DNA of 64,000 bases from Candidatus Shapirobacteria bacterium (GTDB taxonomy: Bacteria > Patescibacteriota > Microgenomatia > UBA12405): assembly GCA_016188545.1 (NCBI GenBank), contig JACPHO010000001.1:355324-419323 (forward strand). The letters are read 5' to 3'. Position 1 is the stretch's first letter; each line of letters starts with the position of its first letter. Below are positions 5,269 through 18,098 of this stretch, in pieces. A model generated the notes under the pieces. The model searched no databases. It saw nothing but the letters and a program-made list of their open reading frames with translations, and had not been told where the DNA came from. A program made the position numbers and the translations under genes.

Positions 5269-6381
5269 CTAAATCGTCCGAACACTCAATCTATTTGCCG
5301 GTCCCTGTCCAAACCAAGAGTCACCGTGTACTACCACGACAGTATCCTTAGAATGCAACAGCCCATCTTTTTTTAAGTCTGAAAATATTGGATCTTCGGT
5401 TGCGTACGCCTCAGTCAGGAAGTCTTTATAATAGGGGATTACTCCGTAAGATAGGCATAACTGGTTCAACACCTTTTTGTCGTTACTTATGGCGATTATT
5501 GGTACTCCAAGTCTATAACGCGACATCATTTTCGTCGTCGTCCCTCCTCGAGTAAAAGTTAATACCGCTTTAATAGGTTTATCCAAATCGTCCTTAGTCA
5601 TCCTGGCAGCAGATTCTGTTAATGCATCTGTTAGTGTTTTTGCACCTAAGTTTATTGTTCTAAGTTCACCTGTCGTCTCACAAAACTTGGCAATTTTAGC
5701 CATAACCATAACTGCTTCAACTGGGTGATTACCTAAAGCTGTTTCTTCTGACAACATGACGGCATCTGTCCCATCAAACACCGCATTTGCCACATCGGTT
5801 GCCTCAGCCCTAGTCGGAGTCATGTTTTTAGTCATTGAGTAGAGCATCTCAGTGGCGACAATCACTGGTATACCTGCAGTTCTAGCCGCGTCAACTATCT
5901 TTTTTTGGAAAAAAGCCAACTCTTCTATGGGAGTTTCTCTACCCAAATCACCTCGAGCTACCATTAGCCCATCGGCCACCTCAATAATATTGTTGAGTTC
6001 CGTCATCGCATAACCATTTTCGATTTTGGCTATGATCTTGGTCTCTATTTTTCGTCTCCTAAGTCGATTCTTTAGTTCAATTATGTCTTTTGCACTCTTT
6101 AGATATGACAGCGCAATGTAGTCAAAATCAGTAATCTCAACCAGAAAATCATTTCTAGGCACATCAATAATTATTCCTGCCCGAATTCCGAGTCGCTTGG
6201 CGCACCTTCTGATTTTAGCGATCTTATCGTTATGCCACTCGTTAGGGCTATATTTCATGTTAAATCTAAACATGTTGGCGCCCCCTAGTAGTAGTTTTGA
6301 GATTATTTTCTCAGTCTCAGTAGCTGGACCTATAGTCGCTACTATCTTGGTTCTTTTGTCTATTTTTTGCATTTTTTCCAT
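5269..6381 (-). CDS. pyk: pyruvate kinase (compact form, C-terminal domain reduced)
   Basis: Motifs TKIVATIGPA, MVARGDLG, PTRAE, DVANAV and MLSEETA are present. At 370 aa it is shorter than typical pyruvate kinases. Confidence 0.85.
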   Translation of the reverse strand: MEKMQKIDKRTKIVATIGPATETEKIISKLLLGGANMFRFNMKYSPNEWHNDKIAKIRRCAKRLGIRAGIIIDVPRNDFLVEITDFDYIALSYLKSAKDIIELKNRLRRRKIETKIIAKIENGYAMTELNNIIEVADGLMVARGDLGRETPIEELAFFQKKIVDAARTAGIPVIVATEMLYSMTKNMTPTRAEATDVANAVFDGTDAVMLSEETALGNHPVEAVMVMAKIAKFCETTGELRTINLGAKTLTDALTESAARMTKDDLDKPIKAVLTFTRGGTTTKMMSRYRLGVPIIAISNDKKVLNQLCLSYGVIPYYKDFLTEAYATEDPIFSDLKKDGLLHSKDTVVVVHGDSWFGQGPANRLSVRTI

Positions 6382-10855: not shown

Positions 10856-11066
10856 ATTCTGAGTGTATTATAGCTGTTTTAGAAGTTCTAAGTTACCAGA
10901 GATCAAGGCATCTTTTTTCTCTCTAGACCACCCCTTTATTTGTTTTTCCCTTCTCATAACATCAACTCTTGAAGAATATTCTTCTTTGTAAACTTTGCCC
11001 CATAAAGCGAGTGCTGTTGGTGATCAACAATTCTCAGCGAGCTCTCTAGGCGAGTCGAAAGGTTAA

Positions 11067-11189
11067 GGCTGTACGTACAAATTCGAACGTATTTTCAAAA
11101 TGGACTCTCGCCCCGCATCGCCGCGGGTGGGGGCGCGGCGAAAAAAGCGGGGCTCGATTGAACAAAACTGTCGGCTCGAAACGCAAAAA
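11067..11189 (+). repeat. mosaic GC-rich structured repeat, copy A (P1 imperfect palindrome + nested GC hairpin + tail)
   Basis: GGCTGTACGTACAAATTCGAACGTATTTT is followed by the nested hairpin GCCCCGC[ATCGCCGCG..CGCGGCGA]AAAAAGCGGGGC. The tail is CTCGATTGAACAAAACTGTCGGCTCGAAACGCAAAAA. Related copies lie at 13423..13520 and, inverted, at 16166..16280. Confidence 0.7.
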
Positions 11190-11348
11190 TTTATTCAGTA
11201 CTTAAACATTAACGTATATATCAACAAAAGTGTTACAATCGGATGAATTTGAAAAAATATGAACAAACAATACTTTTTTGTGATCATTGAATATTTATGA
11301 AAAATAGGTGATTTTTTTATCAAAACGGAAGTAGGAAGAATTATTGGA

Positions 11349-12976: not shown

Positions 12977-13238
12977 GGCTTCTCCTTTTGAAGTCGAACA
13001 AAATTGTGGGAAATACTTGGACTCTTTATTAGAAAACAACCGAGTTGTTTTTACTAATTAAAAAGCCCAAATACTTGCTTAAATCGCCATTCCTATCCTA
13101 ATTATTAAAGTGCATCTGAACAGAAAATACATAGCTAATATGTAAACCTATTCGTCCATATTTTAACATAACTAGACATAAAAAACAATGTTATAAGATA
13201 TATAGAATATTTTCTTAATCGCGAGCGTAAAAATAATT

Positions 13239-13260
13239 GCGATGATTTATCAATCATCGC
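13239..13260. promoter_or_regulatory. perfect 9-bp inverted repeat GCGATGATT-TATC-AATCATCGC (operator-like or hairpin)
   Basis: Seen directly. It is intergenic, upstream of repeat copy B. Confidence 0.3.
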
Positions 13261-13332
13261 CAAAACCGTCGGCTCGAACTACTTTTTATTGGATAAAACC
13301 ATACTCCCAAAATATCAAAATGACGGATTCTT

Positions 13333-13520
13333 GGCGCTGGCCAATCCTGTGCGCCTGTCCGCCTCTGGCGGAGGCGTGGCCTGCGCCATGGCAAAAATCA
13401 TGCGATTTGCAAAAACTGTTGAGGCTGTACGTACAAATTCGAACGTATTTTAAGAAATTATAACAGTCGCCCCGCTCGTCCCGTCGCCGGTCGGGACGAA
13501 AAACGCGGGGCTCGATTGAA
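13333..13520 (+). repeat. mosaic GC-rich structured repeat, copy B (P3 long hairpin + CGATTTGCAAAAACTGTT linker + P1 + nested GC hairpin variant 2)
   Basis: P3 is TGGCGCTGGCCAATCCTGTGCGCCTGTCCGCCTCTGGCGGAGGCGTGGCCTGCGCCA at 13333-13390. P1 is at 13423-13451. The hairpin GCCCCGC[TCGTCCCG..CGGGACGA]AAAACGCGGGGC is at 13466-13520. Confidence 0.7.
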
Positions 13521-13580
13521 AATTATTTTTTGCGCGCGCGATTTTAAGAATTGTTGGAACTATTAAGATATAATCAAAAC

Positions 13581-14726
13581 ATGAAGTTGACCTCAAATCT
13601 CATCAAATATTACCTGTGGCAATTCATTTCTGGTTTTTATTTTATCTACACTCTCCAAGCACTGTATTTACTTAGTAAGGGTATTACACCGACACAATTA
13701 GCTCTATTTGCCAGTGTCACGGCCATTTCGTCAACTGCTCTCGAAATCCCCACCGGATTTATTGCAGACAAATTTTCTCGAAAATTATCCGTATCACTTG
13801 GGTTTTTTTGTAGTGGCTTGGCATATCTTGGTTTTATATTTATCACTAATTTTTATGGATTATTGATAATTTCGTTTTTACTGGGACTAGCAGAAGCTCT
13901 AAAAAGCGGTGCCGAGGAATCATTAATTTACGATGATTTAAAATCATTAAACCAAGAATCAGATTATTTGAAAGTCACATCAAAGGGAACAACTATCGGT
14001 ACAGTCTCGGGAGCAGTGGCCACATTTTTAGGGCCGATACTTTTTGTAATTCACGCCACAATTCCATTTATTTTAAGTTCCATAACTCACTTATTGCTCG
14101 GTGTGTTAATTCTTAGTTTTACTGAATCTAGAAATTCATCCGAAGTTAAGGAAGAAGTAAAAGTAATGGGAGGAGTAATGGCAATCTTAAAAAACAAATA
14201 TGTTCGCTTGATTGTCTTGATGGATACAATTTTACTTGTTTTTGTAAATATCTATTATCAGGTTTTATTTTTTCCAAAGATTAATGGTTTGGGTTTAGAT
14301 GTTCAGTATTTAGGAACTTTAGATGTAATCAATATCGTCTTAATGTCGGGGATGTTTATTATTTTGCCACGGTTAGTATTAAAGAATGAGAAAAACAATT
14401 TAGTCCTTTACACCATGTTGCCGGTATTATTTTTCATTTTGTTTGGACTTAGTAACAAGCTAATACCAGCCTTAATTTTTGGTGTAGTTTTTGATTTAGT
14501 TTGGTCAGCCAGAAAGCACATTTTACCTACAATTACCAACCGACATTTCAATTCCAGTGACCGCGCATTAAGTATTTCTAGTATGAGTTTTATTAGCAAT
14601 CTCTGCGCGGCAATATTTGTCCCAATTGCTCTAATCTTGTTTAATGTAAGTTATTATTACACTTTAATACCGGCAGTCTTTATTATATTTCTACTTTATA
14701 TTTACCCCAAGAATCAAAACTCATAA
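13581..14726 (+). CDS. MFS-family transporter
   Basis: About 12 TM segments. An MFS motif-A-like sequence, EIPTGFIADKFSRK, lies between TM2 and TM3. Likely start is the ATG at 13581. Confidence 0.6.
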   Translation: MKLTSNLIKYYLWQFISGFYFIYTLQALYLLSKGITPTQLALFASVTAISSTALEIPTGFIADKFSRKLSVSLGFFCSGLAYLGFIFITNFYGLLIISFLLGLAEALKSGAEESLIYDDLKSLNQESDYLKVTSKGTTIGTVSGAVATFLGPILFVIHATIPFILSSITHLLLGVLILSFTESRNSSEVKEEVKVMGGVMAILKNKYVRLIVLMDTILLVFVNIYYQVLFFPKINGLGLDVQYLGTLDVINIVLMSGMFIILPRLVLKNEKNNLVLYTMLPVLFFILFGLSNKLIPALIFGVVFDLVWSARKHILPTITNRHFNSSDRALSISSMSFISNLCAAIFVPIALILFNVSYYYTLIPAVFIIFLLYIYPKNQNS

Positions 14727-14750
14727 ACAATATCGTGTTTCGAGTCTGGT

Positions 14751-15497
14751 TTATTTCCAATTAGGGTAGTCAATAATTTGTAGGAATTCTTGATATACCA
14801 CCCTTAGTTCTTTTGATATGTTAATTAGGTCATCTCGTTTTGCAATGAATCTTCGATTGTGTGCGCTCAAATCTCCAAACCTCTTAATTTCTTTAAGGCC
14901 ACTTTTGCAATTCCGACTTAAGTTAAAACTAGCCTCAGCTACAGCAAGTCGAATCAAATCCTCAAGATAATAAAAGTCACCTTGAGAATTTTTAATTTTG
15001 GTCGACAAATTGTTCTTCTCGAATGTCTCAATTATTAATGTTTCTAACAACCTGCGCAACATTACGTTACATGCATCATATAAACCATTATCAAAACAGG
15101 CGATAGCTTGATATGCCACTTTTTCAATATAGCCACGAGTATTTTCAAACAAACTTATTGGAAGTAAATTATTTGATACCTCAGGCGTGGTTGGATTTTT
15201 AAGATATTTCTCTTCTATTAGTTTCTGTCCAAATGGGGTTAAGAAGTACATTCCTGATTTCACGAAAAATCTTGCCGTCTTCTTGACATTTCTCTTAGCG
15301 TTTATTTTTAGATACTGTGGGATGTTGGAGTATGACGGCAAATTCAATTCATCAAAACAAGCTACAACATCCGAAGATCTCACGCCAGGCTTATTTTGCT
15401 CTTTTAGTAAAAAATATACAAAACAATCTACCTGCGACGACAATCCGATATCGTTATGGTCGAAAATGCTTTTAGTAAAACTTTTCAGGTCTAACAT
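14751..15497 (-). CDS. HEPN/DUF4145-like domain protein with N-terminal winged-helix-like domain (candidate toxin or abortive-infection effector)
   Basis: The C-terminal motif EIKRFGDLSAHNRRF carries an R-x6-H spacing with G(D/N)..AH, as in DUF4145/HEPN. The preceding RRLLETLI helix fits the family pattern. It starts 5 nt after the stop of 15503..16078. Confidence 0.5.
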   Translation of the reverse strand: MLDLKSFTKSIFDHNDIGLSSQVDCFVYFLLKEQNKPGVRSSDVVACFDELNLPSYSNIPQYLKINAKRNVKKTARFFVKSGMYFLTPFGQKLIEEKYLKNPTTPEVSNNLLPISLFENTRGYIEKVAYQAIACFDNGLYDACNVMLRRLLETLIIETFEKNNLSTKIKNSQGDFYYLEDLIRLAVAEASFNLSRNCKSGLKEIKRFGDLSAHNRRFIAKRDDLINISKELRVVYQEFLQIIDYPNWK

Positions 15498-15502
15498 TTA
15501 AG

Positions 15503-16078
15503 TTATTGATTTTTATCAGCAACCACTTTTGATTTTTTCGTTTTCTTTTTCGGTAATTTCGCAGTACCACTATCCCTTGAAATTATTTCTAAAGCTTTCC
15601 TTTTTCCATCATCGGTGACGACATATTCTGCTCCATTTAGTTGGCTGAGCCATTTATTTTTAACTACATTGTTAAGTGATGCGGATAGATTTTTAATTTT
15701 ACTTGGTGTCTTTCTCCTTGACTCCGCATACTTATCAATTATTTCTTTTCTGGTTAAAGTATCTTTGCCTTCCTTTGTTATATAAAACGCATATATCAAA
15801 ACCCATTCAGTTTCACCTTGTGGTTTATTTTGTCTTGCCAAATCAAACAACGTCATTGTTCCCACTTCCGATACAACCTCACTAACAGTGTCCGTAGAAA
15901 TTGGCTTTGTTACTGGATTAAAAGATATTGGTTTTTCATTTTTGACTGCATATACATCGGCAATTTTACCAATACCATCCTGTTTTATTTGATTGAATTG
16001 ACTAATAACTTCACTAGAATCTCCCTCAAGTTCTACCTTAAAGTCACCAACAGAAACATTTATTTTTAAGTTTCCCAT
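15503..16078 (-). CDS. hypothetical partner protein of the HEPN-like gene; shares a winged-helix-like domain with it; lysine-rich C-terminal tail
   Basis: The segment QNKPQGETEWVLIYAF...NVVKNKWLSQLNGAEYVVTDDGKRKALEII aligns with the downstream protein's EQNKPGVRSSDVVACF...NAKRNVKKTARFFVKSGMYFLTPFGQKLIEE. The tail is KKKTKKSK. Confidence 0.45.
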   Translation of the reverse strand: MGNLKINVSVGDFKVELEGDSSEVISQFNQIKQDGIGKIADVYAVKNEKPISFNPVTKPISTDTVSEVVSEVGTMTLFDLARQNKPQGETEWVLIYAFYITKEGKDTLTRKEIIDKYAESRRKTPSKIKNLSASLNNVVKNKWLSQLNGAEYVVTDDGKRKALEIISRDSGTAKLPKKKTKKSKVVADKNQ

Positions 16079-16165
16079 ATAAGTAATAACATATAATTAA
16101 TATGACTATATCATACGACTGTTACAAATGCCATACGACATCATATCTTCAAATCATTTAAAAAT

Positions 16166-16280
16166 TTTTGCGTTTCGAGCCGACAGTTTTGTTCAATCGA
16201 GCCCCGCGTTTTTCGTCCCGACCGGCGACGGGACGAGCGGGGCGATGTTAAAATATTTGAAATACAGTTCGAATTTTTCG
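16166..16280 (-). repeat. mosaic GC-rich structured repeat, copy C (inverted orientation)
   Basis: Its reverse complement reads P1-like AATTCGAACTGTATTT, then hairpin variant 2 (identical to copy B), then GGGGCTCGATTGAACAAAACTGTCGGCTCGAAACGCAAAAA (tail identical to copy A). Confidence 0.7.
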
Positions 16281-16322
16281 GTACAATGCCGACAATTCGT
16301 GAATGTCATGATTTTTTGATGT

Positions 16323-16381
16323 GGCGCTGGCCAATTCTGTGCGCCTGTCCGCCTATGGCGGAGGCGTGGCCTGCGCCACAT
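16323..16381 (+). repeat. P3 long GC hairpin element, second copy, abutting tRNA-Gln
   Basis: TGGCGCTGGCCAATTCTGTGCGCCTGTCCGCCTATGGCGGAGGCGTGGCCTGCGCCA. It differs from the 13333-13390 copy at only two positions, both in predicted unpaired regions. The same CGATTTGCAAAAACTGTT linker follows. Confidence 0.7.
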
Positions 16382-16407
16382 CAAAATCTTTCGATTTGCA
16401 AAAACTG

Positions 16408-16478
16408 TTACCCCGCATGGATTCGAACCACAATCACGAAGTTCAGAGCTTCGTGTCCTACCATTAGACGACGGGGTA
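16408..16478 (-). tRNA. tRNA-Gln (anticodon CUG)
   Basis: Reverse complement: TACCCCG-TC-GTCTAATGGTAGGAC-A-CGAAG-CTCTGAA-CTTCG-TGAT-TGTGG-TTCGAAT-CCATG-CGGGGTA-A. The cloverleaf has a 7-bp acceptor stem and a TTCGAAT T-loop. Confidence 0.85.
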
Positions 16479-16490
16479 TTAAAAAATAAA

Positions 16491-16581
16491 GAGCTAGTGT
16501 CCTATTGTACCAAGCCGTAGCCTTGGCGTAGGCTGGTTTACCTTGCCGTAACGGGGTGAAGGCAGGCCATTAGACGACGGG
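16491..16581 (-). pseudogene. partial duplicate of the tRNA-Gln 5' half, interrupted by about 62 nt
   Basis: TACCCCGTCGTCTAATGG is followed by a 62-nt insert and then TAGGACAC-TAGCTC. This matches the first 18 nt, the D-arm 3' part and the anticodon-stem start of the adjacent tRNA-Gln. Confidence 0.55.
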
Positions 16582-16668
16582 GTATCGACGTATTTTACAT
16601 TATATTGTTTTAAAAGTCTCCCTTGTCAAAGGGAGATTTAGAGGGATTGAACATGTTAAAATAAACCC

Positions 16669-16854
16669 ATGCAAACCATAGATGAACTTTGTCAGCAACT
16701 AAAACTAACCCCAGAACAAAAACTAGCAATCGAAGCCTATTGTAGCCAACTGGTTGTCGAGCTTCTCGAAAGCATCAAGCAGGACAATGTCCAAAACTTC
16801 GATGAGACCATCAGCACTATAAGCTCCCAAGTCGACGCGAAGAATTCAAAATAG
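16669..16854 (+). CDS. hypothetical small protein (uncertain)
   Basis: 61-aa ORF whose 3' end overlaps the convergent MBL gene. No motif. Confidence 0.2.
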   Translation: MQTIDELCQQLKLTPEQKLAIEAYCSQLVVELLESIKQDNVQNFDETISTISSQVDAKNSK

Positions 16855-17455
16855 TATCTTCTTCCCCGTGTCCAGGTAGAACTATAACCTCTCCCGGTAA
16901 TTTAATAAGCTCTCTTAAACTTTTTCGTAAATCAGACATCGAGGAATAGTTATGATCAGTACTTCCTATCCCACCCTCCGCAAACAGGGTATCCCCGCTA
17001 AACAATAATTTACCACTGGTATCATAAAAACAAACCCCACCAGGCGTATGACCGGGGGTTTTCAGTACCTTCAGCTTCTCCTCCCCAAGTAATATGTTTT
17101 TTGCGTTACTCAGGTCAACATCTGTCTCAGCTATGTCTAGCGTGTCTACTCTATGTTTCAAAAAATGTTCTGCTGTTTCTTTTTGTCGCTTAAGTAAAAA
17201 CATGTCGAGTTTGCTTACTCCGATAGGAATGTTGTACATCAATTTTAAGTCCATAGCTGCCAACAAGTGGTCAAAGTGCCCGTGTGTCGCCAGTATCATT
17301 AGTAGCTTCAATTGGAGCCTCTGAACCTCATCGCTAATCTCAGTCGCAGCATCAGCCGGGTCAATAATTACTCCTTCTTTTGTTTCATCATCCCAGACTA
17401 TATAACAGTTGGTTTCTAGTTCACCCAAGACCAACTTTTCGTATTTCAACATCAT
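16817..17455 (-). CDS. MBL-fold metallo-hydrolase (glyoxalase II-like)
   Basis: The HxHxDH motif ATHGHFDH is present, with downstream His/Asp ligands. Confidence 0.75.
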   Translation of the reverse strand: MMLKYEKLVLGELETNCYIVWDDETKEGVIIDPADAATEISDEVQRLQLKLLMILATHGHFDHLLAAMDLKLMYNIPIGVSKLDMFLLKRQKETAEHFLKHRVDTLDIAETDVDLSNAKNILLGEEKLKVLKTPGHTPGGVCFYDTSGKLLFSGDTLFAEGGIGSTDHNYSSMSDLRKSLRELIKLPGEVIVLPGHGEEDTILNSSRRLGSL

Positions 17456-17504
17456 TATATTTTACTTTTTATTTTTTATTTTTGAATTTTTGATATACTT
17501 CACT

Positions 17505-18098
17505 ATGCCTTCGCCAAATATTGACCCAACTGTTCGACTTTTTATTGGTGGCCTTCCTTACCGTTTTACGGAAGGGGAGTTACTTACTCTCTTCGCTCCC
17601 TTCGGGCGAGTCGTTTCACTTAAAATAATGCACACCCCTTGGGGTAAAAGCCGAGGTATGGGATTTGTTGAGTTTGATAACGTTGATTCTGCCATCAAAG
17701 CCAAGCAAAGTCTTCACAATCATCGAGTCTCTGAAGAGAGAACTATTATTGTCGACTTTGCCGCTCCAGACCCAGCCACTACTGAAGAAGGTCGCTTGCG
17801 TCGAGAGCAGGTCCAGAGTCGCAAACCCCTCCGTCGTCAATTTTCAAATGTAAGTAATACTAGTATAAGTCCTAAGGATCCATTTACTCGTCAAAATCGT
17901 GGTACCAACAAATCAGATTCAGGTCGTCGACCATATAGCCCCAAGACATCCGAGGGTACAGACTCAGAAAAACCCCGCAAATTCGGCAATTTCAAGCGTG
18001 GAAAAAGTGCTTTTGGAAACAACCGTCAATCGGTATTTGATTCTCGGTCCCATCATTCCCGAGTCGGTGCCAAGTTTGCCAACCGACAAAAGAACTGA
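17505..18098 (+). CDS. RRM-domain RNA-binding protein with R/S/G-rich disordered tail
   Basis: RNP-2 LFIGGL and RNP-1 RGMGFVEF are present. Start moved to the ATG at 17505 (MPSPNID) to avoid overlap with the divergent MBL gene. Confidence 0.8.
   Translation: MPSPNIDPTVRLFIGGLPYRFTEGELLTLFAPFGRVVSLKIMHTPWGKSRGMGFVEFDNVDSAIKAKQSLHNHRVSEERTIIVDFAAPDPATTEEGRLRREQVQSRKPLRRQFSNVSNTSISPKDPFTRQNRGTNKSDSGRRPYSPKTSEGTDSEKPRKFGNFKRGKSAFGNNRQSVFDSRSHHSRVGAKFANRQKN

Follow-up and report, generated by a model that had tools for sequence, protein, structure and literature searches.

A two-gene locus from a Shapirobacteria genome pairs a winged-helix–HEPN protein with a co-inherited winged-helix partner: a candidate conflict module

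Do two short adjacent genes in a Candidatus Shapirobacteria genome, one of them encoding a HEPN-like protein, form a functional unit, and if so, of what kind? HEPN RNases rank with the most frequent effectors in prokaryotic immunity, and to our knowledge, the way in which such an enzyme is kept off and turned on has been worked out in few cases, among them Csm6/Cas13, HepT-MntA, and RAZR. Moreover, the bacteria of the Candidate Phyla Radiation (CPR), from which this locus comes, have sparse defence repertoires.

We examined this question in a 64,000-nt stretch of contig JACPHO010000001.1 (hereafter, the window). The two genes, A and B, are encoded on its reverse strand, and by their open reading frame coordinates they are separated by 5 nt (Table 1). 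A sequence-only reading of this DNA had proposed them as a two-gene operon and a candidate defence or toxin module, and both reading frames are present as it described them, with 191 and 248 aa and the same spacing. We take the start of A to be the ATG because its homologues keep the N-terminus MGNL(K/R)I. The GC content of A and B is 33–34%, versus 39.8% for the window. The promoter-like site lies 27 nt upstream of the start codon of A, in a region that has fewer such sites than its shuffles.

Table 1 Features of the A–B locus and its surroundings (window coordinates).
Feature	Coordinates	Strand	Basis
Gene A, partner/regulator candidate	15503..16078	-	191-aa ORF, ATG start
Gene B, wH-HEPN (DUF4145) effector candidate	14751..15497	-	248-aa ORF, ATG start
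A residues 1-34, beta-hairpin and helix head	15977..16078	-	Family alignment, AlphaFold secondary structure
A residues 77-167, winged-helix domain W1	15578..15850	-	
A residues 168-191, Lys-rich tail KLPKKKTKKSKVVADKNQ, predicted disordered	15506..15577	-	AlphaFold pLDDT 30-50
B residues 1-100, N-terminal winged helix, paralogous to A-protein W2/W1	15198..15497	-	
B residues 114-248, HEPN (DUF4145) all-alpha domain	14754..15158	-	
Putative active-site motif of B, K205-R-F-G208-D209-L-S-A212-H213-N214-R215-R216	14850..14885	-	Alignment of 33 sequences
HEPN helix of B, R148-RLLETLIIETFE-160	15018..15056	-	Invariant R148, E152, E157, E160 in alignment
Promoter-like site ATGGCA-18 nt-TATAGT, TG extension	16105..16134	-	Consensus match only
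Variable slot: A, B and their upstream region	14705..16158	.	blastn against related-strain contig L097
Left GC-rich dispersed repeat copy; inverted-repeat arm 13467-13520, direct-repeat copy 13332-13420	13217..13547	+	
Right copy of the same repeat element; inverted-repeat arm 16192-16245, direct-repeat copy 16322-16409	16126..16409	-	
tRNA-Gln (CTG)	16407..16478	-	
MFS transporter gene, convergent with B, inside the repeat-bounded block	13551..14726	+	Pfam MFS_1, E = 8.5e-17

The larger protein, B, could be assigned to a known domain family. A profile search matched its residues 131–224 to DUF4145 (PF13643; 24.7 bits, E = 2.6e-5), a borderline score that passes the gathering cut-off of 23.1 bits by 1.6 bits and bears out the HEPN/DUF4145 call made from the bare sequence. 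Few close homologues (about 8 of 120) carry a precomputed match to PF13643. The predicted structure of the domain is an all-alpha, up-down helical fold, and by sequence and predicted fold together, B is a DUF4145/HEPN protein. Its homologues are numerous: 812 were retrieved by a word-indexed search, and 1474 clusters at 50% identity by an exhaustive search (E ≤ 1e-3). The N-terminal fusion partners of this HEPN clade are diverse, a P-loop NTPase being one of them; judged from domain architecture, such diversity is the pattern of immune effectors.

The most conserved stretch of B is the motif region G-D-x-S-A-H-N-R-R. Across 33 aligned sequences, K205, D209, A212, H213, N214, R215, and R216 are invariant, as are R148, E152, E157, and E160 of the HEPN helix, whose first residues (148–155) are the RRLLETLI helix pointed out earlier. 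The alignment also revises the motif first proposed for this domain: R-x6-H is literally present as R206-x6-H213, but R206 varies across the family, and what is kept is K205-x7-H213-N-R-R. Likewise, the string EIKRFGDLSAHNRRF does occur in B, at residues 203–217 of 248; it belongs to the C-terminal region and stops short of the terminus, where it had been placed. Lys205 stands where DUF4145 proteins canonically have Arg, which one relative (P0264, IRDSGNLSAHNRK) retains, and the same x7 spacing separates R146 and H154 of RAZR (PMC13017515). Since an invariant Lys replaces the canonical Arg, the domain might work by a different chemistry or lack catalytic activity.

A proved to be the regular companion of this protein. 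Whether the two genes stay together in other genomes had been named as a point on which the proposal could fall; we found a homologue of A directly upstream of B, on the same strand, in 70 of 74 genome loci encoding a winged-helix–HEPN B, and in these 70 the junction is tight or overlapping (–38 to +9 nt). Of the four loci without a scored upstream A, one lies at a contig end and one has a frameshifted B with A present. Loci of the pair occur in Bacteroidota, Clostridia, Acholeplasmataceae, Proteobacteria, Desulfobacula, and CPR bacteria. At all six loci where a HEPN of the same clade carries a different N-terminus, A is absent (0/6). The co-occurrence of A with the winged-helix-bearing form of B is strict. 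A single-sequence, word-indexed protein search with A returned only A itself and would have cast it as an orphan; that result was misleading, and mining the neighbourhoods of B loci recovered its homologues.

These homologues revealed what A has in common with B. In longer A proteins, we detected a second winged helix, W2, and profile–profile comparison matched W2 to the N-terminus of B (probability 97.9%, E = 4.6e-13), W1 to W2 (96.7%, E = 4e-10), and W1 to the N-terminus of B (72.7%, E = 3e-5). The likeness needs profiles to be seen, because pairwise BLASTP of A against B gives no significant match (E = 7). The idea that both proteins carry the same winged-helix-like module is thus supported at the profile level through W2, as well as by the two AlphaFold models, and the alignment that first suggested it holds in part. 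Its C-terminal half (FGQKLIEE against DGKRKALEII) is in register; its anchor (EQNKPG against RQNKPQG) is out of register with the profile alignment, which places residues 90–166 of A on residues 20–98 of B, and the shared QNKP is a chance word match. On the strength of these profiles, the winged helices of A and B are judged homologous, and paralogous by descent.

Outside the winged helix, A is less easily placed, and profile searches of Pfam, NCBIfam, PADLOC, and PHROGs gave no match for it. The part most widely shared across the family alignment is the head, with the consensus IELEGD..V...F..(I/L)(K/R)..G(L/I)G and a predicted secondary structure of two strands (residues 4–10 and 13–19) and a helix (21–34), modelled at low confidence (pLDDT 54–65). 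The AlphaFold model of A as a whole was built from nine sequences and has a pLDDT of 58, being low outside the winged helix. The winged helix itself is H1/H5-like, and throughout the family W1 is followed by linkers rich in Lys and Ser. Many relatives carry an N-terminal Cys4-type double zinc ribbon, which the A of the window lacks, and many, with 300–400 aa, exceed B in length and have two winged helices besides the zinc ribbon. With its H1/H5-like winged helix, its Lys-rich tail, and the zinc ribbons of its relatives, A looks like a nucleic-acid binder.

The genomic setting of the pair suggests a cassette. In L097, a contig of a related strain, blastn aligned both flanks of the pair: window positions 13546–14704 correspond to L097 positions 1–1155 (88.9% identity) and 16159–16254 to 2064–2160 (97.9%). 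Between these matching flanks, the slot holding A and B is replaced by a 908-nt segment encoding one unrelated protein of 282 aa, for which the libraries searched gave no match. The neighbouring MFS transporter is 95% identical in L097 at the protein level, and this conservation places its gene outside the swapped slot.

As the sequence-only reading had noted, the block lies beside a tRNA-Gln gene and has GC-rich repeats on both flanks. These form a direct repeat of about 90 nt and an inverted repeat of 54 nt with 100% complementarity, and shuffles of the window gave no match to either repeat core. The right copy abuts the 3′ end of the tRNA-Gln gene. We considered the direct repeat as an attachment site and rejected this: it is a dispersed element, and no integrase is present. 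A third copy lies elsewhere in the window, and more were found in 13 other metagenome contigs, some beside tRNA genes and most without a tRNA in the stretch examined. No Rfam family covers the repeat. Both GC-rich repeats belong to a dispersed element that is specific to the lineage. A further related contig has the same repeat pair on either side of a Type IIG restriction-modification enzyme and a PLD-like PDC-S05 protein.

The genes surrounding the pair suggest a defence and mobile-element setting. The commonest family among the 148 nearest neighbours is AbiLii/RloB (7 of 148, a raw count), and an AAA_15–RloB gene pair lies directly upstream of A–B both in Chitinophagaceae and in Firmicutes. 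Other neighbours include serine recombinases, integrases, TnpV, methyltransferases and restriction endonucleases, Vsr, and PbeA. At several loci, the pair stands alone amid housekeeping genes, which fits an autonomous cassette but also weighs against a defence setting. The distribution of A–B is patchy, and the pair is horizontally moved and found in defence and mobile-element contexts. With tblastn, B had no match in the collections of phages and plasmids, and IMG/VR yielded two matches, both to the HEPN domain only; since the pair is absent from the former and nearly so from viral contigs, the case for its carriage by mobile elements is indirect.

We regard A–B as probably a conflict module that is self-contained, has two components, and belongs to the toxin–antitoxin or abortive-infection type, a reading in which we have moderate confidence. 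B would be the effector, its N-terminal winged helix joined to a C-terminal HEPN domain of the DUF4145 clade that would most likely cleave RNA once two HEPN domains meet, and that would be toxic. A, with its beta-beta-alpha head, one or two winged helices, and Lys-rich linkers, would be an obligate nucleic-acid-binding partner that either keeps B inactive, as an antitoxin does, or serves as a sensor or scaffold that licenses B upon a trigger. The two would be coupled through the winged-helix module they have in common by descent, with the winged helices pairing together or docking side by side on one nucleic acid, and the outcome would be an anti-phage or anti-plasmid effect. No A–B fusion protein was found among the longer members of the HEPN clade, which we count against treating physical interaction of the two as proven. 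As the pair joins a regulator to a candidate nuclease carrying a paralogous winged helix, and is compact and strictly co-inherited, it offers a specific regulatory hypothesis that can be tested. CPR bacteria, gut and soil Bacteroidota, and Clostridia would also gain a defence candidate.

A wider reading can be offered only tentatively. Here, A–B would be the first example of a widespread but undescribed two-gene immune system, present in about 0.1% of species genomes and with members in Bacteroidota, Firmicutes, Mollicutes, Proteobacteria, and CPR. A, as sensor and regulator, and B, as HEPN nuclease, would communicate through the duplicated winged helix, that of B mimicking the second one of its partner; the binding of an invader's nucleic acid or protein by A would bring B into active HEPN dimers with a non-canonical Lys...His-Asn-Arg-Arg site. 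In CPR bacteria, such systems would be carried as exchangeable cassettes between inward-facing GC-rich hairpin repeats.

Three other explanations were weighed against the conflict-module reading. In the first, which we consider rather unlikely, the pair is a plain type II toxin–antitoxin addiction module that stabilises the island and has no immune function, B being the toxin and A a labile, DNA-binding, autoregulating antitoxin. In its favour, the partner gene is small and lies upstream, the junction is tight or overlapping at –38 to +9 nt, the winged helix and basic tail of A suit operator binding, A evolves faster than B (48% versus 68% identity to the nearest relative), and an integrase or resolvase adjoins some loci. 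However, the known antitoxins of HEPN toxins are MNT proteins and A has no such domain, and many A proteins exceed B in size, as antitoxins seldom do, and are in this respect more reminiscent of sensors. Because toxin–antitoxin and abortive-infection roles are compatible, we see this explanation as a narrower version of the conflict module.

According to the second, an improbable one, the Lys in place of the canonical Arg marks a catalytically inactive HEPN domain, and the pair forms a complex that binds nucleic acid or has a regulatory role, such as one of chromatin-like proteins or of transcription or RNA-binding factors, and is no nuclease system. Against this, the invariant H213, N214, R215, R216, R148, E152, E157, and E160 are typical of an active site rather than of decay, and the positive charge could be supplied by Lys or by the adjacent R215 and R216; moreover, a housekeeping regulator would not be expected to be distributed so patchily, to be replaced as a cassette, or to have defence-island genes as neighbours. 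The last explanation, that A and B are merely adjacent, functionally unrelated, and alike by chance, could draw on the non-significant BLASTP comparison and the word-indexed search that finds A alone, but is effectively refuted by the near-zero spacing of neighbours in 70 of 74 loci from several phyla, the restriction of A to loci where B has a winged helix, and profile–profile probabilities of up to 97.9%.

How, then, does the candidate module A–B relate to known systems? The earlier statement that this is not a described system agrees with our searches: neither A nor B of the window matched PADLOC-DB v2.0.0 at E ≤ 1, searches of NCBIfam, PHROGs, and PDB sequences were empty for both, and the papers found to mention DUF4145 describe other architectures. 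Literature searches on wHTH plus HEPN defence, on HEPN/winged-helix two-gene anti-phage systems, and on DUF5343 retrieved nothing relevant. Among relatives of B, PADLOC gave weak matches, one to PD-Lambda-5_A (E = 1e-3, for a single relative and spanning about 57 HEPN-region residues) and others to AbiJ (E about 0.01), the latter with none for the window protein. In the eukaryotic RNA-binding protein Roquin, a non-catalytic HEPN domain is split around the ROQ winged helix; the likeness is one of analogy only, because there is no sequence similarity (10% identity).

The pairs of DUF5343 (PADLOC candidate PDC-M34A) with a short HEPN protein resemble A–B more concretely: the HEPN belongs to the same clade, of GDxSAHNRR type, and the partner gene is directly upstream of it. 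The short HEPN proteins, of 171 aa in Xanthomonas, Thiomonas, and Stenotrophomonas, lack a winged helix, unlike B, and DUF5343 itself, considered as a divergent A-type winged helix, has no detectable homology to the domains of A (hhalign probability below 2%). Known HEPN toxins are partnered by an MNT nucleotidyltransferase antitoxin. In these HEPN–MNT systems (HepT-MntA, type II/VII), the partner is thus a nucleotidyltransferase, whereas A is not one: A and eight of its homologues gave no such match, only zinc ribbons or nothing. B also differs from the HEPN of these systems in its extra winged helix and in its motif, K-x7-H-N-R-R as opposed to Rx4-6H.

AbiJ and other abortive-infection proteins of this layout resemble B in joining a variable, mostly helical N-terminal adaptor to a C-terminal HEPN, but they form single-gene systems, while A–B has two genes. 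Fusions of DUF4145 with sigma-HTH, zinc-ribbon, AbiJ-NTD1, and other domains in defence contexts were described by Anantharaman et al. (2013), whose passages on DUF4145 contain no partner bearing a paralogue of the N-terminal domain. Several DUF4145 proteins, namely RAZR/PD-T7-4, BxaP, and Ishtar, were experimentally shown to be defence RNases or defence proteins. [quoted passage not shown] The PADLOC model of PD-T7-4 did not match B or its relatives. RAZR is a single polypeptide (ZFD and HEPN) in contrast to the two genes of A–B; it has a zinc finger where B has a winged helix, the zinc ribbon, if any, being on the partner A; and it carries the canonical Arg where B has Lys, an invariant replacement that makes this family a natural experiment on HEPN catalysis.

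Both open reading frames that the sequence-only reading had proposed as an operon were found exactly where it had placed them, five nucleotides apart (TAA-cttaa-ATG). The upstream gene (A), the downstream gene (B) and the adjoining transporter gene have a GC content of 33-34%, compared with 39.8% for the window. The peptides quoted in that reading are all present in the two proteins, but EIKRFGDLSAHNRRF, taken for the end of B, spans residues 203-217 and lies 31 residues short of the C-terminus.

Features of the A-B locus, and the inverted element copies of a second contig (L095, own coordinates)
Feature	Position	Strand	Remarks
Gene A	15503..16078	minus	191 aa, ATG start
Gene B	14751..15497	minus	248 aa, ATG start
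MFS transporter gene	13551..14726		adjoins A-B
tRNA-Gln(ctg)	16407-16478	minus	
54-nt perfect inverted repeat	13467-13520 / 16192-16245		folds to a strong hairpin, -35 kcal/mol, z -5.4
~90-nt direct repeat	13332-13420 / 16322-16409		right copy abuts tRNA-Gln 3' end
Dispersed-element copies in the window	11059-11195, 13217-13547, 16126-16409		
Inverted element copies in L095 (795 kb)	838-940 and 5986-6088		103 nt each, bracket 5 kb

The proposed DUF4145/HEPN assignment of B was borne out by a match to Pfam PF13643 (E 2.6e-5) whose score of 24.7 bits barely exceeds the gathering score of 23.1. A highly confident AlphaFold model built from 33 homologues (mean pLDDT 93.7) comprises two domains: a winged helix at residues ~1-100, with three core helices, a beta-hairpin wing and a trailing helix, and an all-alpha bundle at residues ~114-248. 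A word-indexed search recovered 812 homologues, nearly all full length at ~246 aa, and an exhaustive search yielded 1474 clusters at 50% identity. Across 33 aligned members, R148, E152, E157 and E160 of the RRLLETLIIETFE helix are invariant, as are K205, D209, A212, H213, N214, R215 and R216 of the motif (I/L)K-x-x-G-D-x-S-A-H-N-R-R. The R-x6-H motif initially suggested did not hold, as its R206 varies (K/R/N/M/S) and the basic residue that never changes, K205, lies eight residues ahead of the histidine. The K205/H213 spacing equals that between R146 and H154 in the DUF4145 RNase RAZR, a pair validated by experiment (PMC13017515), and one relative of B (P0264) has arginine exactly at the K205 position (IRDSGNLSAHNRK); K205 therefore corresponds to the usual DUF4145 arginine. 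In this clade, lysine replaces that arginine, an invariant Asn-Arg-Arg follows the histidine, and the HEPN domain is likely to be catalytically competent.

Proteins of 300-515 aa (P0205, P0212, P0222, P0230, P0283 and others) also end in a HEPN of this clade, preceded by N-terminal regions of many unrelated kinds; P0212 contains a P-loop NTPase-like motif (GQRKIGKTS). Such a variety of N-termini on one HEPN clade matches the variable-sensor/constant-effector pattern of immune proteins.

Protein A had no match in Pfam, NCBIfam, PADLOC or PHROGs, and a single-sequence word-indexed search retrieved only A itself. We rejected the idea that A is an orphan, which was an artefact of the word index: homologues are encoded upstream of B homologues. 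Upstream of the closest B homologue (L001, 68% identical) is a gene whose 195-aa product matches A along its full length at 48% identity (E 1e-62); in Deminuibacter soli, the 401-aa upstream protein shares 41% identity with A across 128 residues (E 8e-24). Based on the family alignment and domain HMMs, A proteins may begin with a double zinc ribbon (Pfam DZR / Zn_Ribbon_1). A head of ~35 residues (consensus IELEGD..V...F..(I/L)(K/R)..G(L/I)G) leads through a variable linker to the first winged helix (W1), and a linker rich in Lys and Ser connects W1 to a second winged helix (W2). Several loci encode a third, A-like protein of ~180-195 aa (L023:6717-7259, L025, L039, L042, L024:6959-7519, L014:4216-4800), either directly 3' of B or as an additional gene upstream; in some Clostridia and Bacteroidota, members of the A family have thus arisen by duplication inside the operon.

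The winged helix is common to both proteins. BLASTP of A against B was negative. Starting from A, profile iteration arrives at the B N-terminus (A 90-166 with B 20-98, E 5e-12 for the window's pair; down to 1e-23 elsewhere), and searching in the opposite direction succeeds too. We compared W1, W2 and the B N-terminus as separate profiles in hhalign, with W1/W2 boundaries taken from the iterated search: W2 matched the B N-terminus at 97.9% (E 4.6e-13), W1 matched W2 at 96.7% (E 4e-10), and W1 matched the B N-terminus at 72.7% (E 3e-5). An HMM of W2 sequences alone found B N-termini down to E 3e-12, and the AlphaFold models of A and B have the same order of secondary structure in this domain. 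Profile searches, hhalign and models therefore uphold the shared domain first suggested from sequence, although the closest counterpart of the B domain is W2, which the window's A lacks. In the originally proposed alignment, the C-terminal half is in register with the profile alignment, whereas the EQNKPG/RQNKPQG anchor is not.

To what extent are the two genes found together? We scanned one genome per species (185,579 species), obtained 176 stretches with B relatives and fetched the best 80 with their flanks, 74 of which encode a B with the N-terminal winged helix. An A-family gene lies immediately upstream on the same strand, with a gap of -38 to +9 nt, in 70 of these 74, confirming conserved co-occurrence. 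The other four comprise a contig end (L036), a locus with A present and B frameshifted (L025), a Bacteroidales contig without A (L019) and a Peribacteria locus with an unrelated 212-aa ORF upstream (L054). At none of the six fetched loci where a same-clade HEPN has another or no N-terminal domain was A found; in four, the upstream gene encodes DUF5343 (PADLOC PDC-M34A). A therefore travels solely with the winged-helix form of B, and this restriction is the strongest argument that the common domain links the two functionally. HEPNs of the GDxSAHNRR clade that lack the winged helix (~171 aa) were seen in Xanthomonas, Betaproteobacteria, Thiomonas and Stenotrophomonas (L062, L068, L075, L078). 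The DUF5343 gene preceding these short HEPNs matches PDC-M34A at E 8e-41 and has no detectable homology to the A domains, making this a sister two-gene arrangement whose partner gene is unrelated.

The distribution of A-B is rare, patchy and horizontally moved, with hosts in Bacteroidota, Clostridia, Negativicutes, Acholeplasmataceae, Gamma- and Alphaproteobacteria, Desulfobacula and CPR. The pair was absent from phage and plasmid collections, and IMG/VR held just two relatives, both HEPN-only. It stands alone amid housekeeping genes in Flavobacterium and Acholeplasma laidlawii, and adjoins an integrase in Sphaerochaeta and a resolvase at another locus. Among 148 nearest neighbours, the commonest family was RloB/AbiLii (7), followed by DUF5343 (4, the alternative partners), serine recombinases (3) and, with two each, tyrosine integrases, TnpV, DNA methylases, restriction enzymes, Vsr, HNH and PbeA; these raw counts are suggestive of defence-gene enrichment. 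In Chitinophagaceae (L004-L006) and at five Firmicutes loci (L056, 1979-5550; L059, L065, L066, L076), A-B directly follows co-oriented AbiL-like genes (AAA_15 ATPase and RloB), with tiny gaps. This arrangement in two distant phyla could represent a single unit of four genes, or part of a defence island that has repeatedly been transferred together.

The GC-rich repeats noted in the sequence-only reading bracket the MFS, A and B genes; they proved to be copies of a dispersed element. We rejected att sites as an explanation, given a third, more diverged copy (the leftmost in the window) and copies in 13 metagenome contigs (L088-L100), some beside tRNA-Gly, tRNA-Arg or tRNA-Gln and most without a tRNA in the fetched stretch. 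The element is specific to the window's lineage, has no Rfam family and is 90-97% identical across contigs. A conserved AT-rich, promoter-like 5' part (...TTCGAAC...17 nt...TATAAC) is followed by a 45-nt hairpin of invariant sequence (-32 to -35 kcal/mol) and by one of two tails, 'a' (AAAATTATTTTTTGCGCGCGCG) or 'b' (ACAAAACTGTCGGCTCGAAACGC). Both the window and L095 contain a pair of inward-facing copies that form perfect inverted repeats (54 nt and 103 nt, respectively, 100%), each pair having one 'a' and one 'b' end. Both pairs bracket cargo with defence-type genes: MFS, A and B in the window, and a Type IIG restriction-modification enzyme (PADLOC E 4e-98) with a PLD-like PDC-S05 protein in L095. 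The element could be MITE-like with terminal inverted repeats, a substrate for inversion or exchange, or an insulator or leader element.

Comparison with a sister strain (L097; MFS identity 89% at the DNA level, 95% at the protein level) showed homology ending at the MFS 3' end (14704) and restarting at the hairpin element (16159). Between these points L097 has one unrelated 282-aa gene (1212-2060, +) in place of A-B, which therefore occupies a variable slot. The 282-aa protein has an N-terminal hydrophobic segment and no Pfam, PADLOC or PHROGs match, and may be another uncharacterised cassette gene, possibly for defence. Nearby, an exact 19-nt direct repeat (CCATTAGACGACGGGGTAT; 16461-16479 and 16567-16585), one copy being the tRNA-Gln 5' end and the second lying 106 nt further on, may be left over from tRNA duplication or rearrangement. 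Next to the gene for an MBL-fold hydrolase (16817-17455), the translation of an ORF at 17409-18098 (+) shows the sequence of an RRM-type RNA-binding domain (LFIGGLPY...GFVEFD) ahead of a long Arg/Ser/Gly-rich tail.

HEPN nucleases generally work as dimers with a composite active site (PMC13017515). Given this, the paralogous winged helices, the nucleic-acid-binder features of A and the zinc ribbon that A proteins carry in many lineages, we propose that A controls B through the module common to both. A might sequester B in an antitoxin-like manner, or might assemble B on a nucleic acid or invader-derived scaffold, whereupon the HEPN domains would dimerise, cleave RNA and arrest the infected cell. 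This function is a well-grounded prediction: we consider it probable that A-B is a two-component HEPN conflict module of the toxin-antitoxin/abortive-infection type, and hold any one particular switch with much less confidence. A pure addiction module seems unlikely, and a complex that binds without catalysis, to which the Lys-for-Arg change in B would point, rather more so; that A and B are merely unrelated neighbours is effectively excluded.

Published DUF4145 defence proteins have other domains joined to them than A-B does, and all but PD-lambda-5 are systems of one gene. RAZR/PD-T7-4 joins a zinc finger to a HEPN, BxaP a HEAT-like domain to DUF4145, and Ishtar a beta-rich C-terminal domain to its HEPN; the zinc ribbon of A proteins in many lineages resembles the one with which RAZR senses phage proteins. 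PD-lambda-5, described as a highly compacted RM+Abi system, has a PADLOC model that weakly matched one B relative over part of the HEPN region. A is not a nucleotidyltransferase, the partner that HEPN-MNT toxin-antitoxin systems require. Sigma-HTH and zinc-ribbon fusions of DUF4145 appear in the 2013 HEPN survey, whose DUF4145 passages do not describe the pair. PADLOC v2.0.0 has no model for A or B and full-text literature searches found no description, in line with the initial impression of an undescribed architecture. The observation made in the sequence-only reading holds and its interpretation gains support, with its motif, alignment register and view of the repeats corrected. We class A-B as a predicted HEPN-based conflict system whose novelty lies in its architecture; such systems are already known, and it is not categorically new.
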